A stretch of 43,319 nucleotides of DNA, from NCBI GenBank assembly GCA_045657125.1, contig JAZOSM010000002.1, positions 1-43,319 on the forward strand, written 5' to 3'. This stretch comes from Eubacteriales bacterium. GTDB taxonomy: Bacteria > Bacillota > Clostridia > Oscillospirales > SIG627. The stretch's first letter is position 1. Each line of letters opens with the position of its first letter. The translations under genes were made by a program, and so were the position numbers. The notes under the pieces were generated by a model. It worked only from the letters and a program-made list of their open reading frames with translations, ran no database searches and was not told where the DNA came from. This document shows positions 14 through 17,189 of the stretch, one piece after another.

Positions 14-198
14 ATCCAAGCCGACAGGCTTGGTATATCATCAGCCTGTAGGGCTGTATATCATTACCGCACCTGTGCGGCGTATATCATCACGCGTAGC
101 GTGTATTTTTCTCGGCTTGATGATATAGAACTTCTTTCGAAGTTGATGATATGCAATTCCTTCGGAATTGACGATATACAACGGCAAGACGTTGATTT
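14..198. repeat. Hairpin-ladder element, copy A (3 forward TATATCAT linkers, 3 reverse ATGATATA-type linkers, 7 variable hairpins)
   Basis: Hairpins at 16-33, 42-56, 65-82, 91-103, 128-145, 154-170, 179-194. Linkers TATATCAT at 34, 57, 83 and ATGATATA/ATGATATG/ACGATATA at 120, 146, 171. Same architecture at 1067-1274 and 11443-11627. Confidence 0.9.
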
Positions 199-228
199 AT
201 AAAATTCAACCTCAGGTTGAAAAATATA

Positions 229-257
229 TTGAAAAATATTGGAAGATGTGATATAAT
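229..257 (+). promoter_or_regulatory. sigmaA-type promoter for histidine phosphatase gene
   Basis: TTGAAA(229-234)-17 bp-TATAAT(252-257) with extended -10 TG. Confidence 0.7.
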
Positions 258-301: not shown

Positions 302-991
302 ATGAAGATTTATTTTGTTCGCCACGGACACCCTGATTATGAAAACGATTGTTTGACAGAGCTGGGGCACAAGCAGGCCGTAGCCGCGGCAGAAAGATTA
401 AAGAATTGCGGAATCGAGCAAGTGTTTTCTTCTACCAAAGGAAGAGCTTTTCAAACCGCAGAGTATACTGCAAAAGCACTTGGTTTGCAGGTGATATCTT
501 GTGATTTTATGAGAGAAATAGGGTGGCGTTCAATTGACGGAGAGCCTATTTTGGCAAATGGACATCCATGGAGTCTTTCTGACATCTTTGCCTCCGAGGG
601 TAAAACTTTGACCGACAAAGAGTGGTACATGAAAGAGCCATATTGCAAAAGCAAGGTGGTAAGTTCTGCCGATGTCGTAAAAAAGGGGCTCGACGCGTGG
701 TTTGCCGAGCTCGGATATCAAAGAGAGGGAGAGTATTATCGAGTAGTTGGCGAAGCAACAGAAAAAACGGTTGCCATGTTCAGCCATGGTGGCTCTTCTT
801 CCGTAGCGTTGTCGCACATTTTGAACATCCCCTTTCCCCAAATTTGCGGCATTTTTCATCCTGATTTTACTTCAATTACTGTGGTTGAGTTTTCGGATAA
901 AATCGGAGAGCTTTTTTGCCCCGTACTGCTTCTTTTGAATGATGCACGGCATATAGAAGGTCTTGATAGCAAAAAAACATACGAAGAGTGA
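302..991 (+). CDS. Histidine phosphatase / phosphoglycerate mutase family protein
   Basis: N-terminal FVRHG motif, LTELGHKQA, SSTKGRAFQTA and C-terminal FSHGG; RBS AAAGGA upstream. Confidence 0.9.
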   Translation: MKIYFVRHGHPDYENDCLTELGHKQAVAAAERLKNCGIEQVFSSTKGRAFQTAEYTAKALGLQVISCDFMREIGWRSIDGEPILANGHPWSLSDIFASEGKTLTDKEWYMKEPYCKSKVVSSADVVKKGLDAWFAELGYQREGEYYRVVGEATEKTVAMFSHGGSSSVALSHILNIPFPQICGIFHPDFTSITVVEFSDKIGELFCPVLLLLNDARHIEGLDSKKTYEE

Positions 992-1031: not shown

Positions 1032-1066
1032 AAAAAAGAGATACTCAATTGAGTATCTCTTTTTTT
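1032..1066. terminator. Intrinsic (bidirectional) terminator directly upstream of element copy B
   Basis: Palindrome AAAAAAGAGATACTCAATTGAGTATCTCTTTTTT. Confidence 0.8.
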
Positions 1067-1274
1067 ATCCAATCCGAAGGATTGGTATGTAATCGCCGTT
1101 AGGCGTATGTAATCAGTTCGCTCTGCGAACTGTATGTCATCAAAGCATTAGCTTTGTATGTTTTTTCCTTCGGATTGATTACATACCGACTTTGTCGGAT
1201 TACATCCACGGCGTTGCCGTGATTACATACATTTTGTTACGAAAATGATTACATGCAACACTTCGTGTTGATTT
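1067..1274. repeat. Hairpin-ladder element, copy B (linker variant TATGTAAT / ATTACATA)
   Basis: Hairpins at 1069-1085, 1094-1105, 1114-1132, 1141-1156, central TCC-TTC-GGA, 1186-1198, 1207-1221, 1230-1247, 1256-1270. Linkers TATGTAAT/TATGTCAT at 1086, 1106, 1133 and ATTACAT(A/C/G) at 1178, 1199, 1222, 1248. Confidence 0.9.
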
Positions 1275-1296
1275 AGTGGCGGATTTCTGCTATACT
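1268..1296 (+). promoter_or_regulatory. sigmaA-type promoter whose -35 is the right end of element B
   Basis: TTGATT(1268-1273)-17 bp-TATACT(1291-1296) with extended -10 TG; RBS GAGGTG then ATG at 1316. Confidence 0.6.
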
Positions 1297-11287: not shown

Positions 11288-11316
11288 TTGACAAAAATAA
11301 CTTCATCCGATATAAT
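11288..11316 (+). promoter_or_regulatory. sigmaA promoter of tRNA-Gln
   Basis: TTGACA(11288-11293)-17 bp-TATAAT(11311-11316). Confidence 0.9.
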
Positions 11317-11330
11317 AATAGGGTTCATAT

Positions 11331-11406
11331 AGGGATGTAGCCAAGCGGTTAAGGCACCAGACTTTGACTCTGGCACTCGTGAGTTCAAATCTCGCCATCC
11401 CTGCCA
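11331..11406 (+). tRNA. tRNA-Gln (anticodon TTG)
   Basis: Acceptor AGGGATG/CATCCCT, D-arm GCC..GGC, anticodon arm CCAGA-CTTTGAC-TCTGG, T-loop TTCAAAT, encoded CCA; 76 nt. Confidence 0.97.
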
Positions 11407-11442
11407 AAAAATTCGACAAGTTTCAACTTGTCGAATTTTTTT
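11407..11442 (+). terminator. tRNA terminator directly upstream of element copy C
   Basis: AAAAATTCGACAAGTT-TC-AACTTGTCGAATTTTT. Confidence 0.85.
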
Positions 11443-11627
11443 ATCCAAGCCGCAGGCTTGGCATATCATCACGACGCAGTCGTGTATATCATCAAGGGCG
11501 CATTGCGCCCTGGTATCTCATCACGCGCCAGCGTGCATTTCCTGCGGAATTGATGATATACAATGCTTCGCATTGATGATATACCGCAACAAGTTGCGGA
11601 TGATATACACGGCTTTCGCCGTGATTT
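11443..11627. repeat. Hairpin-ladder element, copy C
   Basis: Hairpins at 11445-11461, 11470-11484, 11493-11513, 11522-11535, central TTCC-TGC-GGAA, 11561-11575, 11584-11599, 11608-11623. Linkers CATATCAT/TATATCAT/TATCTCAT then ATGATATA x3. Confidence 0.9.
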
Positions 11628-11779
11628 ATGCAAGAGTTCGAATTCATACGCAAAACTGCTGAAAATATCTTTTTTGATTGATGTGTTCCCTTCGGGAATA
11701 TGATGCCGCTACGCGAATGATGTCACGTTGGATGACGATTCTATTCCGTTTTTTGTGCAGATTGACTGCTTGTTTTTTG

Positions 11780-11808
11780 TTGACAAAGCAAGTTCTTCCT
11801 TATATAAT
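11780..11808 (+). promoter_or_regulatory. sigmaA promoter of large surface protein gene
   Basis: TTGACA-17 bp-TATAAT. Confidence 0.75.
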
Positions 11809-11903: not shown

Positions 11904-14900
11904 ATGAAAAACGCAAAACTTTTTTCGGTTTTAGCGTCCCTGGTTCTTCTCGTCGCTTGTGTTGTCGGTGTGCTTGTATTTGGCACTTCTGCGGCAGATG
12001 AGACGGTTCAGTGGACGATTGACGGCACTACTTATTCTACCATCAAAGAGGCGTTGACCGCTGCCGAGGGCAAAAACTGGGCGGCATCCCAGACCCTTGT
12101 CATTACGGTAGATCCTACAAAATTGGCAAATGAGAGCATTTCTCACGATGCAAACGGCACGGCTTATGCAGGTGGAATTGCTTTTGGTCAGAAAACGATT
12201 TTCCGTGCAGACGGCACCCGTCTGCCCATTACTATCAAGGGTTCTTCTGATCGCGCGGCTTTTACCTTGAATATCACTACCGATACAAAGGTTGCCTGTG
12301 CCAACAACTATACCTTTGAAAATCTGACTTTCCCCATTGGCGCAACCTCTAAAAATACCTATTTTTTTGCAGGATCGGGTGTGATTCGTCTGGAGAACGT
12401 GGCTACCGGCACCGGTGTCCTCGGAAAAATGAGTGGTGATAACTTCACCGCCCGCGCTTTTGACGGTTGGACTGCGGATCATGTTGCCGCAAACGCTTAT
12501 AAGGGAAGCACCAATACCTATACTTCTCCGAAGGTTCTTACTTCGCTTACCATCGGTAATGACGTTGTTTACGTTCACGATGCAACCAAGTGTAATACCG
12601 CCGCCGTTCAAGATTACGACGGATGGGATACTTATGCCGGTGTTACGTTGACCCCTTCCGATATCGTTGCCGAGATTGTTCTTGACGGCGGCAGAGTCGG
12701 TGACTTTGCGGGACGTGTAGGTACGAGCCCCGTTGCAGAATCCATTCAGCGCGTGGAAAAAGGCGCGATTGCAGGTGCTTATTTTGCAAGCAGCGGTAAC
12801 TTTGTAAATGCCACCGCTTATTCCGGAAGAACCCATTATACAGGAAATATTACCATTATCGTCAACGGCGGTACCATTGAAAAGTCCACCAGACTTTTGC
12901 ATACTGCACAGGTAAACGGTAACTATAAGGTGTATTTCAACGGCGGTACTTTTAAAAGCTACGTACAGGTCGGTTACGGTGAGAACGTAATTACCGGTGA
13001 CTACGAGCTTAACGTTACGGGCGGTTTGTACGAAGACACCGCAAATGGTTTCTATGCGCATCCCTCTGCAAGAATTGAAGGAAAATGCGTAGTAAATATT
13101 TCCGGCGGTACTTTTAAGCATTGGTTCCGCGGTACTCATTTGCAGCCTTTCGACGAAGACGGAGCGCCGACCACGTTCAAATCCATTGAGATCAACGTTA
13201 TGCCCAATGCCAAATCTCCTGAATTGGATCCCGTTTTCGAAGGCAATTTTTACGGAAATTATAAAAACGGCGGCACTATTGAAACGATGAAGATCAATAT
13301 CTCCGGCGGTACCTTTAACAGCTTTGTTACAAATACCCACTCGGACGGTGTTGGAACGATTGTCAATACCGTTACCGGCGGTACCTTCAACGGAGCCTTT
13401 TATCCCGGAAAAGTAACCTATGCAGGAGTAATCGGAAGCATTACCAATAAAGTTTCCGGCGGTACTTTTAACGCGGGCTTCTTCGGCAACGGACAGTACG
13501 GAGACGCTTCTCCCTGTCCTACCGTTTTGAATGAGATCTCCGGCGGTACCTTCAACGGCTATTTCTACGGCGGCGGTGAAATGGAGAAATGCTATGCGGA
13601 AACCATTACCAATAAAGTTTCCGGCGGTACTTTCAACAGCTATTTCTACGGCGGTTCCAAAGTTTCGAATTATGCGTCTACCGACGTTATCAATGAGATC
13701 TCCGGCGGCACTTTTGTAAAGGCGTTTCTCGGCGGCAACGTTAGTGGAACCGTAAATAGTGTTACCAACAGAATTTCCGGCGGTACTTTTAGCTCAAACT
13801 TCTATGGAGGCAGTGACGGCGGTACCATCAAAGTCGTTGCGACCGAGGTTACAGACGGTACCTTTGGCGGTATTTACTTCGGCGGCAACTACAGCAGTGT
13901 TACGACAGATATTACCAATACGTTTAAGGGCGGTACCTTTAACAACCTTGTAATGGGCGCAGGTAAGGCTTCCACGACGGGTAACGTAAGTAATACCATC
14001 TCCGGCGGTAATTTCAAAAGTCTCTTTATGGGCGCAGGCGTTCTTTCCGCAGTAGACGGCAACGTTACCAACAACATCAGCGGCGGTACTTTTGCAAAGC
14101 CCGTTTTCGGCGGTGCTTGCAACGCTGCCATTACCGGTACGATTACCAATAATCTGTGCGGTCCCGTTACCTTTACCCAGGGCTTCTGTGCAGTTCACGG
14201 AACCAAAGCAAACGGCGGTTCTACAGGCTCTATCGTCAATCGAATCTATGCGGATGCAAACGGAAAGGCTCCCAAGATTCTGAATCCTCCCGCAAACGAA
14301 GCGGCAGGATCTGTATTTACCTACGAGTCAACGAAATATGACGTAAGCGATACCAACGGATTCTCCTTCCTCGGCGGTACTTGCTACGGTACGATTACAG
14401 GTACCATCACCAATACGGTGGAAGCAGGCGAATTCGGTACTGCAAGCATTGGTATGTTCCACGCAGGAAGCCGTAATTCTGCCATTGGAAAGGATGCAAA
14501 CGGCGTTTCCGTTAACAACCTTATCAAAGGCGGTACCTTCCACTTCCGTTTCTACGGCGGATGTCTCAACGGCACTGCAAGCGGCGAGACTAGAACTGTG
14601 GTTGAGGGCGGTGTTTTTGAGAAAGAATTTACAGCCGGAAACCGTACTATGTCTTCTTATAACAAGCCGATTACGTTAATCATTCGCGACGGTGAATTTC
14701 TCAGCAAGGTTTACGGAACTTATTTCGGCTATACCGCAGATCAGAGTGCCAGGGGTCAGATTTCCTCTAACGTTATGGTGAATATCGAAGGCGGTATTTT
14801 CAGAAACGATATTTACGGTATGGGTAACAACGGTGCCGCAACTGCAACTTACTCCAATGGCAGCGGTATTACATCAGACGGCTCCGTGCTTGTCAATATC

Positions 14901-17189
14901 TACGGCGGTACCTTCTACGGCAGCATAAGTCCCACCAACGAAGCCCCCGTTGAAGCTAATATGCTTGGTACGGCACGCGTTACCGTTGAACCGAAGCACA
15001 GCGACGTGATGATCGGCGGCAAGGTCGTATCTCGCTTTGCGGCAGAAAAGATTTCCGTTGTGGGCGGTGAATATAAGATTCTCGTAAACAGAGACGGCTC
15101 TTTGCAGGCCAATGAATCTGCAGAAGGCACCATTGAAGTGGTGCAGACCGATATGTGGAAAAAGTCTACGTATCTTGCACTTCCTGCAGGTCACACCGCT
15201 ACCGTAAACGCTTCTACTGCAAAAGGCGCTTACGGCTACTTTAAGACAAAGCTCGGTCAGCAGGGCGAGATCATTGAGGTATACGGAGATGCTTTGGACC
15301 TTGGTGCTTCCCTGGTCCTGACCGACCGCATTGCGGTAAAGTTTCAACTGAATAAGGAACTTGTTGATGCAGTTGAAAACTTTACTTATTCCTTTACCTT
15401 GCCTGACGGAACCGTTTTGGCAGAGGGTGATGCAGACGATCTGAAAGATATGATCGAAATGACGGAGTTTGAGTATTATACTCTGACCTTGAAAGCCCTC
15501 GGCATTTCTCAGTTTGATACGCCGATCACGGCGAATATCAAGGGAATCTGGGAGGGTGATACCTTCTCCATTTCCGCCTTGGCTTATGCTGCGGTTGATG
15601 CTTGGGAAGGAAATGATAACTTCGTTTTGATGGCGAAGTCTATTGTAAATATGGCTGCAGCGGCGAAAGACGATACGCTTCCTTACCGGTTGACTCCCGA
15701 TGCCGTTGAATACCAGCGCAAGACTCCTACCAAGGATAACGATGCTCTGATCTCCTTTACCTCCAAGAGTCTTTTGATGAGCAGTGCCGTAGGCGTTCGC
15801 CTTGAGGGTACTGTAGCAAATGCTTCCGATGCGGAAGGTATGATTGTCAAAGTAAACGGAAACAACGTAACGAACAGAGCGCTGATTCAGGTGGAAGGAA
15901 ATTCCGTTTTCGTAGATCTGTTCTTTACCGCTTATGGTATGAGCAAGGAATTCAGCCTTGAAATTCTTGATAAGAACGGAAAGAATTGCTTGACGATGTT
16001 TGAGCGATTGGATTCCTTTGCGGCTTTGTATGGCGCAGACCACAAGCTTGCGGTTTCCCTTTTGTCTTACATTCAGGCAACCGCTGCTATGGAAAAGGCA
16101 ACCTTTAATATGGAAGCGACCGATTCCGAGATCGCACATCTTAACAGCCTTTATGAAGGTGAGACTGTTTACTACGGAGATATCCACGGACATCCCGGCG
16201 GCGGAATCATCGAGGATGGTAAAGTAGATATGTCCGTTTGGGTAGCAGACAGAACTACCATCGGCGTTGACTTCTACACGGCTATGAACCATAAGCAGGT
16301 CGCACATATGTACGACGACGGATGGGACGATACCGTTATGATCGGCGGTTCCGAGCCTGCTACTTCCATTACCAAGAACGGAAAGAAAATTTCCGTACAC
16401 TACAATATGATCGTTCCCAATCCCGAAGCGCTGATTGAGGTTCTTCAGCTTTTCCCCGAGTTTAAATATACCGGCGGAACGGGTGATATTGAACTGAATA
16501 TGGGCACCTTCGGTTATCCCGGATTTACCTACGATCGCTTCAACGAGCTTGTTTCTGCCATTAAAGAGCGCGGCGGAACCGTGGTGAACGTGCATCCCAA
16601 GCAGCAGTACACATCCGACGATCCCTTGGACTACTACTATCAGGATTATATGGGTCTTGAGGTGTTCTACTCCTACACCGACAAGAACATCCACGGCAAA
16701 GATTCCCAGGATAACTACAAGCTCTGGACGGATCTTCTGGCTCTCGGAAAGAGAGTTTGGGCAACTGCAGGTTCCGATAGTCATAATTCGCCCACCAACA
16801 GCGGTCTTACTACCCTTTACGCTTCTCAGCGACTCAATACCAAGTACGTAGAACAGTTGGTTAGCGGTAATTTTGCTCCCGGATACGCAGGCATTCGTAT
16901 GGCAATCGGTGATGCGGAAATGGGTGGACATACCGATTTCGAAGGTAAGAGGCTGATCTTTTCCGTTGGTGATATCCACGATCTGTATCTGTCTAAGACC
17001 CGCGCATACAGAGTCAACGTAATCACCGATCAGGGCGTTGTATTCTCCACCGTAATCGATGGTACCAAGACGAGTTACTTCTCTCTGGACGCTGATGAAA
17101 ATGCGGCATTTTACCGCATTGAGGTCATTGATGAGTCGATTCAGGGTCTGCCCATCGTAGGTCTCGGTAACCCCATCTGGAACGACTGA
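11904..17189 (+). CDS. Large secreted protein: signal peptide, tandem 'NxISGGTF' beta-solenoid repeats, C-terminal PHP-type metallohydrolase domain
   Basis: RBS AGGAGG; signal peptide ending TSA-A; many (I/V)SGGTF..FYGG repeats; C-terminal YGDIHGH, DFYTAMNH, VHP, GLEV, AGSDSH. Confidence 0.85.
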   Translation: MKNAKLFSVLASLVLLVACVVGVLVFGTSAADETVQWTIDGTTYSTIKEALTAAEGKNWAASQTLVITVDPTKLANESISHDANGTAYAGGIAFGQKTIFRADGTRLPITIKGSSDRAAFTLNITTDTKVACANNYTFENLTFPIGATSKNTYFFAGSGVIRLENVATGTGVLGKMSGDNFTARAFDGWTADHVAANAYKGSTNTYTSPKVLTSLTIGNDVVYVHDATKCNTAAVQDYDGWDTYAGVTLTPSDIVAEIVLDGGRVGDFAGRVGTSPVAESIQRVEKGAIAGAYFASSGNFVNATAYSGRTHYTGNITIIVNGGTIEKSTRLLHTAQVNGNYKVYFNGGTFKSYVQVGYGENVITGDYELNVTGGLYEDTANGFYAHPSARIEGKCVVNISGGTFKHWFRGTHLQPFDEDGAPTTFKSIEINVMPNAKSPELDPVFEGNFYGNYKNGGTIETMKINISGGTFNSFVTNTHSDGVGTIVNTVTGGTFNGAFYPGKVTYAGVIGSITNKVSGGTFNAGFFGNGQYGDASPCPTVLNEISGGTFNGYFYGGGEMEKCYAETITNKVSGGTFNSYFYGGSKVSNYASTDVINEISGGTFVKAFLGGNVSGTVNSVTNRISGGTFSSNFYGGSDGGTIKVVATEVTDGTFGGIYFGGNYSSVTTDITNTFKGGTFNNLVMGAGKASTTGNVSNTISGGNFKSLFMGAGVLSAVDGNVTNNISGGTFAKPVFGGACNAAITGTITNNLCGPVTFTQGFCAVHGTKANGGSTGSIVNRIYADANGKAPKILNPPANEAAGSVFTYESTKYDVSDTNGFSFLGGTCYGTITGTITNTVEAGEFGTASIGMFHAGSRNSAIGKDANGVSVNNLIKGGTFHFRFYGGCLNGTASGETRTVVEGGVFEKEFTAGNRTMSSYNKPITLIIRDGEFLSKVYGTYFGYTADQSARGQISSNVMVNIEGGIFRNDIYGMGNNGAATATYSNGSGITSDGSVLVNIYGGTFYGSISPTNEAPVEANMLGTARVTVEPKHSDVMIGGKVVSRFAAEKISVVGGEYKILVNRDGSLQANESAEGTIEVVQTDMWKKSTYLALPAGHTATVNASTAKGAYGYFKTKLGQQGEIIEVYGDALDLGASLVLTDRIAVKFQLNKELVDAVENFTYSFTLPDGTVLAEGDADDLKDMIEMTEFEYYTLTLKALGISQFDTPITANIKGIWEGDTFSISALAYAAVDAWEGNDNFVLMAKSIVNMAAAAKDDTLPYRLTPDAVEYQRKTPTKDNDALISFTSKSLLMSSAVGVRLEGTVANASDAEGMIVKVNGNNVTNRALIQVEGNSVFVDLFFTAYGMSKEFSLEILDKNGKNCLTMFERLDSFAALYGADHKLAVSLLSYIQATAAMEKATFNMEATDSEIAHLNSLYEGETVYYGDIHGHPGGGIIEDGKVDMSVWVADRTTIGVDFYTAMNHKQVAHMYDDGWDDTVMIGGSEPATSITKNGKKISVHYNMIVPNPEALIEVLQLFPEFKYTGGTGDIELNMGTFGYPGFTYDRFNELVSAIKERGGTVVNVHPKQQYTSDDPLDYYYQDYMGLEVFYSYTDKNIHGKDSQDNYKLWTDLLALGKRVWATAGSDSHNSPTNSGLTTLYASQRLNTKYVEQLVSGNFAPGYAGIRMAIGDAEMGGHTDFEGKRLIFSVGDIHDLYLSKTRAYRVNVITDQGVVFSTVIDGTKTSYFSLDADENAAFYRIEVIDESIQGLPIVGLGNPIWND

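Follow-up and report, generated by a model that had tools for sequence, protein, structure and literature searches.

What is the run of small hairpins that lies behind the tRNA-Gln gene of an uncultured member of the Clostridia, and what ties it to the tail of the tRNA terminator? The same question is raised by two further copies of this kind of sequence (copies A and B), which lie upstream of the tRNA-Gln copy (copy C). The first-pass annotation of this DNA had proposed a strict positional rule, explained either by targeted insertion at terminator tails and tRNA 3′ flanks or by a terminator that is itself part of the element. The window analyzed here comprises the initial 43,319 bases of contig C2 from a 1.99-Mb assembly (185 contigs, 77% complete; genome G000), and all of its features described below lie on the + strand. 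We find that copy C belongs to a large family of intergenic, modular DNA elements that occur in uncultured Clostridia of the gut and rumen, namely the Acutalibacteraceae, the Oscillospiraceae and their kin. The descriptive part of this account, comprising the family, its positional rule, anatomy, turnover and kinship with the Gut-1 motif (RF01706), is secure.

The tRNA-Gln(UUG) gene occupies positions 11331..11406 (ARAGORN; 65.8 bits with the Rfam tRNA model) and is preceded by a TTGACA-17-TATAAT promoter (11288..11316) that agrees with the consensus at 12/12 positions. It is followed by a terminator composed of an A-tract (A6), a 14-bp hairpin and T7 (11406..11442), visible in the fold, and relatives carry the same terminator family at this locus both with and without an array. 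Copy C begins at 11443, the base after the last T, just as had been claimed from the T-tract. Its first hairpin (hp1, 11443..11461) is kept to the base across families. The left half-array (11462..11535) consists of three words of the form (C/T)AT(A/C)TCATCA with a variable palindrome after each; the centre (11536..11552) retains 7/11 bases of the reverse complement to the 5′ arm and loop of hp1; and the right half-array (11553..11623) carries the inverted word ATGATATA three times, with a palindrome (TTC or CAAG loop) after each. The array ends at about 11630 with the tail ATTTATG (11624..11630), placed where other copies have a −35 box (TTGATT) that is weak in copy C. Downstream lie a conserved spacer module that is common to other loci and has a T-run at its end (11631..11676), a degenerate second half-array with the word ATGATG and two or three small hairpins (11677..11727, read from the sequence), and the promoter (11780..11808, 12/12 consensus positions) of a 1761-aa ORF that starts at 11904.

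This ORF (11904-17189) has an apparent signal-peptide N-terminus, and its first 1000 residues have no Pfam match. The spacer module, about 45 nt in length, was also found in L013, L038, L200, L227, L229, L234 and L236, where it follows arrays or an AT-rich element and in many cases leads on to a short motif, also conserved, and then to the next terminator and array. A simple terminator scanner listed neither the hairpin at 11406-11442 nor its counterpart at 1032-1066, which are revealed by the fold (11406-11442) and by a separate hairpin scan; in our reading they went unlisted because the A-run pairs with the T-run and no T tail is left. Integration into the tRNA gene with duplication of its 3′ end was rejected, as a search of the window for a repeat of the final 22 nt of tRNA-Gln, allowing up to 4 mismatches, found none.

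Copies A, B and C follow one common plan. Copy A (14..200) starts directly after TCGTTCTTTTTTT, as had been noted, and uses the same word as copy C. These two copies have hp1 and the word TATATCATCA/TGATGATATA in common and few of the variable hairpins, which bears out the earlier observation that they share linkers and a first stem and little else. A terminator hairpin had been predicted just upstream of window base 1; this base is the start of the contig and the assembly contains no overlapping contig, and the 13 bases before copy A match the 3′ arm and T-run of complete terminators that precede arrays in the relatives L030 and L038. A 40-nt stretch of copy A had no exact counterpart among metagenome contigs. 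At the right junction of copy A (217..257) a tandem TTGAAAAATAT (217-227 and 229-239) is followed by the TTGAAA-17-TATAAT promoter of a histidine phosphatase gene (302..991; PF00300, E 4.6e-22), which lies between copies A and B. This tandem is the sole duplication, is confined to one junction of copy A and looks like the module's own −35-like box beside the resident one.

Before copy B there is again an A-tract/hairpin/T7 terminator (1032..1066; hairpin scan), and the copy (1067..1276) starts straight after the T7, at the T-tract where it had been placed. It represents a second dialect, with the word TATGTAATCA/TGATTACATA, and in its hp1 a G-C pair is changed to T-A in a compensated manner, with a GAA loop. 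The final six bases of copy B (TTGATT) form the −35 box of a promoter (1268..1296), behind which lies a four-helix-bundle gene of family PF05635 (1316..1558). The ORF scores above the curated cut-off (53.1 versus 33.8 bits, E 4.2e-14; profile positions 5-79 of 106), and a stop that falls within the match truncates it to 80 aa. The following ORF (1674-2357) carries a zf-HC2 anti-sigma-type zinc finger.

The strict hp1 pattern has 7 copies in G000, and looser scans together with the Gut-1 model detect about 15 arrays with at least five word dialects. Across relatives, the hp1 pattern is present in 25/41 genomes from several families. When extended by four bases it recovers at least 123 stretches in a species-representative genome collection, and those matches listed are all from metagenome-assembled genomes of human or animal gut origin, most of which carry the label Clostridia, Acutalibacteraceae or Oscillospiraceae. 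From G000, its relatives and this collection we assembled a set of 124 non-redundant arrays. A terminator-like hairpin ends within 15 nt upstream in 117/120 arrays, and a T-run lies upstream of 101/123. Among the 113 arrays with at least 110 nt of upstream sequence, 59 have a tRNA gene 28-46 nt upstream on the same strand, representing 25 anticodons; counted from the tRNA side, 8 of the 36 listed tRNA (cluster) 3′ ends in G000 are followed by an array. The positional rule suspected from three copies is thus real and general, the exceptions in G000 being three arrays that have no T-tract terminator (C126, C68 and C16). At the other end, a sigma-70-like site was found in 44/113 arrays, 32 of them at a fixed TTGATT, compared with 2/113 on the reverse strand and 8/1130 in shuffles. 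The element fills the slot from the last T of an intrinsic terminator to the −35 box of the next promoter, which it often supplies itself.

A single array in G000 (C71:100-560) is flanked by two tRNA-Leu(CAA) genes that converge on it and have a terminator each, so that both ends of the array abut a T-run, and many arrays stand alone between core genes. In L140 the right half has grown through tandem repetition of a unit of two hairpins, which suggests that arrays can undergo slippage. A phage or plasmid origin was rejected, since viral contigs yielded only 1 stretch and phages and plasmids yielded no match.

Each array is built from two opposed half-arrays, and each half from two to five short, mostly perfect palindromes. 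Before each palindrome stands the same 8-10-nt word, which is invariant within any one element and changes from dialect to dialect, and the second-half word is the reverse complement of the first-half word in every dialect seen. In the left half, 62/80 distinct units are end-to-end hairpins, compared with 26/1600 shuffles; in the right half, where the segmentation was cruder, the corresponding numbers are 40/108 and 16/2160. The loop bias is mirror-symmetric, with GNA loops in the left half and TNC loops in the right half.

Such an architecture could be that of a structured non-coding RNA in the sense of Gut-1, transcribed from a promoter upstream or by polymerase that reads through the tRNA terminator, and folded either into independent hairpins or into a rod of stacked four-way junctions that pairs left words with right words. 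We consider this unlikely, even though several observations are in keeping with it. The fold of 11407-11640 is very stable (−102.4 kcal/mol, z = −9.1; 0/200 shuffles as stable), the hairpins survive complete sequence replacement, and the words of the two halves could pair by virtue of their reverse complementarity. Avd-type four-helix-bundle proteins bind RNA in diversity-generating retroelements. In one copy (C52) a −10-like TGGTATAAT lies 22 nt upstream and replaces the 5′ half of the terminator. Weinberg et al. (2010; PMC2864571) placed Gut-1 among the likely non-coding RNAs and had found it in human gut metagenomes alone. Perfect palindromes would also fit an RNA or a single-stranded DNA intermediate.

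The conservation pattern, however, lends no support to a pairing between the halves. The innermost word pair is Watson-Crick compatible in only 19/76 arrays (C/T 35, A/G 19) and thus uncompensated, and the common variants, C in the left word and G in the right word, avoid one another. The variant word adjoins the centre in both halves; taken strand by strand, both halves tend to close with an identical variant word, as expected of two mirrored copies of one grammar. Word counts are equal between the halves in 57/124 arrays and unequal in 67/124, and a half-array can occur alone (C16). A ladder of four-way junctions was accordingly rejected as the conserved structure on the basis of the compatibility and word counts. 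Further observations speak against an RNA fold of either kind. Stems with a single mismatch show no excess of G.U over A.C (G.T 12 versus A.C 7, with 164 stems perfect), and folding energy shows no strand bias, the + strand folding better than its complement in 70/124 arrays. Moreover, the arrays lie between a terminator and a promoter, and both mirror arrangements relative to the flanking terminator and promoter occur.

One further feature, shared by most arrays, shows both conservation and covariation. The centre carries a reverse complement of at least 9 nt to the 5′ arm and loop of hp1 in 95/124 arrays, and this match is class-specific, being found with hp1 of the own class in 56/76, 32/40 and 4/5 arrays and with that of the other main classes in 0. 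An invertible switch was rejected, as no flipped form was present in 2.43 Mb of array-rich sequence, where all 19 inversion candidates proved to be hp1 on the other strand or ordinary centres. The inverted repeat has no role in the model that we favour.

The tRNA-Gln(UUG) locus was compared across 18 genomes of the genus, most of which share one terminator family at this position. Behind the terminator stands a full array in 8 genomes (in four word or hp1 dialects), a remnant in 1 and a different, AT-rich inverted-repeat element in 3; the rest are free of an array (one contig being short). The same terminator with changing followers shows that here the terminator belongs to the tRNA gene while the occupants of the slot change, and the comparison favours occupation of a terminator tail. 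In a large sub-family, 18 arrays are headed by an identical 31-nt terminator, whether they lie behind tRNAs (11 different anticodons) or in settings with no tRNA (5), and the terminator moves with the array. A wider terminator family with the same loop core precedes 41/120 arrays, and its members are also found behind tRNAs that carry no array (C116). With a resident terminator at tRNA-Gln and a travelling one of 31 nt, both alternatives proposed at the outset occur, targeted occupation as well as a terminator that is part of the element. The related tRNA-Gln loci supplied the array-less sites that had been sought as a check.

The AT-rich element constitutes a second element type in the same slot behind tRNA terminators and is a long inverted repeat of short words. 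It is the occupant of the tRNA-Gln locus in L236, L241 and L245 (genomes G010, G009 and G004), is also found in G000 (C90:600-900 and C117:10895-11020) and in L265, L280, L282 and L283, and stands directly before a PF05635 gene of a separate clade in five cases.

Turnover can be followed on a metagenome contig (L286) that carries a histidine phosphatase 99% identical to that of the 302-991 gene and has no copy A. Homology begins at window base 226 and includes the same promoter of the phosphatase gene, and other non-coding DNA replaces copy A. Behind the gene, the contig has the same terminator and the same start of copy B, followed by a different unit in place of the first variable hairpin (L286:1240-1337). 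The absence of copy A next to a gene that is 99% identical implies that the turnover is recent. The copies within G000 share identical central blocks and differ in their outer units, and these mosaics, together with the differences in L286, show that the gain, loss and unit-wise reshuffling of arrays take place over short times. About 420 nt upstream, the same contig carries the 3′ half of a type-2 array (L286:1-527).

Comparison of L286 and of the tRNA-Gln locus therefore supports mobility, if the term is taken to mean that arrays were recently gained, lost or replaced. The claim that target-site duplications are missing also held up, as no flanking one was seen and the conserved right end (..TTGATTT) belongs to the element. 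Nothing points to cut-and-paste insertion, there being neither a target duplication nor a transposase that tracks the arrays. For the copy on C52 no clean empty site was found among relatives, which carry the gene in other contexts with an unreadable boundary. The interpretation offered by the first-pass annotation is, as a whole, partly supported.

Could the arrays be selfish, non-autonomous mobile repeats of the MITE or REP/REPIN kind that have no host function and are inserted into terminator T-runs, as a harmless site, by an enzyme encoded elsewhere? Their high copy number (up to 64 Gut-1 matches per genome), their invariably extragenic positions, the frequent breaks of contigs inside them and their variable presence among close relatives would all be expected of such repeats, and in our reading the outer hairpins of one half look like inverted versions of those of the other. 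Against this, a target duplication was not seen, and a match to Y1 transposases of the IS200/RAYT type (PF01797) is missing in 13/31 array-bearing genomes, including a genome that is 100% complete and has 11 hp1 matches (G028) and the genome with 64 Gut-1 matches (G016). Mobilization by RAYT/IS200 enzymes was rejected on this count, as the Y1 transposase does not track the arrays. Furthermore, hp1 is unchanged to the base across families, the positional grammar is kept with the variant word beside the centre in both halves, the supply of promoters argues for selection, and the copies are mosaics of shared units instead of diverging whole copies. We regard purely selfish repeats as improbable.

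The least probable of the explanations considered, and in our view quite unlikely, is that the arrays are folded single-strand DNA recombination sites, similar to attC, that exchange accessory cassettes behind tRNA genes. Arrays do head series of small unrelated genes behind tRNAs, among them PF05635 genes, genes that we label nucleotidyltransferase-like and cysteine-rich, and other small ORFs. The genes between arrays also vary among relatives, as illustrated by the histidine phosphatase gene, for which no DNA match was found in 25 relatives, where copy B and its PF05635 gene did match. Structure is conserved in the arrays while sequence is free. In addition, GNA triloops closed by C-G form very stable DNA mini-hairpins. 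On the other side, the arrays carry promoters (44/113 ends), which attC sites do not, many of them stand alone between core genes or between convergent tRNAs (C71), and neither a circle nor an empty/filled pair with exact cassette boundaries was obtained.

A protein that might act on the arrays is suggested by their neighbours. A PF05635 gene follows about 20/124 arrays, and about 100/124 have none adjacent. Of the 10 PF05635 matches in G000, 5 are immediately preceded by an array and one more is oriented divergently from an array. Across 41 genomes, the 26 with a PF05635 match all have arrays and the 10 that lack arrays all lack PF05635; 5/41 have arrays and no PF05635 match, one of which is 96% complete. 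Among the best 40 PF05635 genes of relatives, picked by score regardless of arrays, 26 are in our reading immediately preceded by a hairpin-word array and 4 by an AT-rich inverted-repeat element, and about 7 were unreadable or cut by the contig end. The word also goes with the protein. Pairs of proteins with at least 75% identity share the word in 74/83 comparisons, the 9 exceptions differing by 1-2 bases, and this falls to 21/269 pairs at 50-75% identity and 0/715 below 50%. G028, at 100% completeness, carries just one PF05635 gene, which falls in the type-2 clade; its hp1 matches, 11 in number, are without exception of the type-2 form, and the 8 arrays that were read carry type-2-like words. 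The word GATGATAT is found in two arrangements and alongside two PF05635 clades that are unrelated to each other. Physical linkage and shared ancestry by themselves would produce both the word/protein match and the co-occurrence, so recognition is not proven by them, and we treat the PF05635 link as a lead.

The PF05635 genes behind copy B (1316-1558) and behind another array of G000 (C37:16631-16840) both have a stop inside the Pfam match and may be decaying. A full-length relative matches PDB entry 2RLD (E 7.5e-16), which contains 5 chains of an uncharacterized protein.

The explanation that we favour, at a probability of about 0.4, is that the element is a DNA-level array of words that would be read by a cognate four-helix-bundle protein and spread by recombination. 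The array would act as double-stranded or transiently unwound DNA and not as a folded RNA ladder. Its words would be putative recognition sites for the small PF05635 (Avd-like) protein, whose gene immediately follows some of the arrays and whose clade agrees with the word. Array and protein could together form an insulated terminator/array/promoter head for accessory genes, and the module may spread or be replaced through recombination at the terminator and at the −35 box, with hairpin units swapped between copies. The counts of promoters at the module end (44/113, with 32 at TTGATT) lend support to a module that operates at the level of DNA. A more far-reaching version holds that PF05635 proteins, which form a very large family, are sequence-specific array readers and that protein and array jointly make up a self-propagating intergenic system, homing to terminator tails with its own promoter and exchanging cassettes as well as hairpin units. 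This version is conceivable but doubtful; if true, it would amount to a mobile or regulatory system of a new kind, in which a single genome harbours many word/protein specificities side by side.

The arrays are among the most numerous non-coding repeats of a whole order of gut and rumen bacteria, and what had been catalogued of them is one half of one dialect, entered in 2010 as an orphan motif. The positional rule, the promoter, the turnover at the level of strains and the pairing of word and clade turn this orphan motif into a testable system, and they provide a first concrete hypothesis for the binding target of stand-alone PF05635 proteins. Should the module insulate and drive accessory genes behind tRNAs, it would also bear on how variable genes are acquired and expressed in these uncultured bacteria, and would provide a natural set of orthogonal terminator/promoter heads.

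Several known systems resemble the arrays in part. MITEs are recognized by a target-site duplication flanking terminal inverted repeats, which the arrays do not show. Integron attC sites share with the arrays a conserved structure with free sequence and a location at the boundaries of small, swappable accessory genes. An attC site is a single imperfect inverted repeat with extrahelical bases, its cassettes are promoterless and a linked integrase is required; none of these properties was seen with the arrays. REP, BIME and REPIN sequences with their RAYT enzymes in proteobacteria, to the extent covered by the accounts considered here, come closer, as they are clusters of extragenic palindromes behind genes in alternating orientation, which is also how the arrays are organized, and are likewise numerous, vertically kept and polymorphic between strains. 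In contrast to REPs as described in those accounts, the arrays have no conserved tetranucleotide tag at the foot of the palindrome and combine diverse palindromes with a constant linker, where REPs do the reverse. The cognate Y1 (HUH) transposase of the REP/RAYT systems, again as those accounts describe them, has no match in 13/31 array-bearing genomes.

The gene behind copy B belongs to the PF05635 family, which comprises 23S rRNA intervening-sequence proteins and Avd. The contexts associated with this family are a reverse transcriptase, a template/variable repeat pair and an rRNA gene, none of which is near the arrays; for stand-alone members, no description of a function was found in the portions of the literature consulted.

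The closest relative is Gut-1, whose model consists of three short C-G-closed hairpins with a constant 7-nt word, GUGAAAU, between them. Within the window there is no Gut-1 match at the gathering score (50 bits), nor over copies A, B and C at E values up to 10, where no other Rfam family was matched either; type-1 sister copies (C29 and C131) reach 21.9 and 21.5 bits. The window copies differ from Gut-1 in using the words TATATCATCA and TATGTAATCA and another first hairpin. Gut-1 matches occur in 31/41 relatives, at up to 64 per genome, and both in relatives and elsewhere in G000 they correspond to one half of arrays that use other words; in one array (C128) it is the second half that matches, on the opposite strand. 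As the matches cover single halves, Gut-1 is one half-array of one dialect. For Gut-1, the seed alignment and the accessible text of PMC2864571 give no second half, terminator/tRNA rule, promoter or protein partner, and in the literature consulted no description of such arrays was found beyond that source; one further paper turned up that names Gut-1. Matches above the cut-off lie behind a tRNA-Glu terminator (C95), behind tRNA-Ala (L038) and upstream of PF05635 genes. Gut-1 and the window copies thus have in common at least three short hairpins joined by a constant linker of 7-10 nt, and they occupy the same slot behind tRNA terminators and before PF05635 genes.
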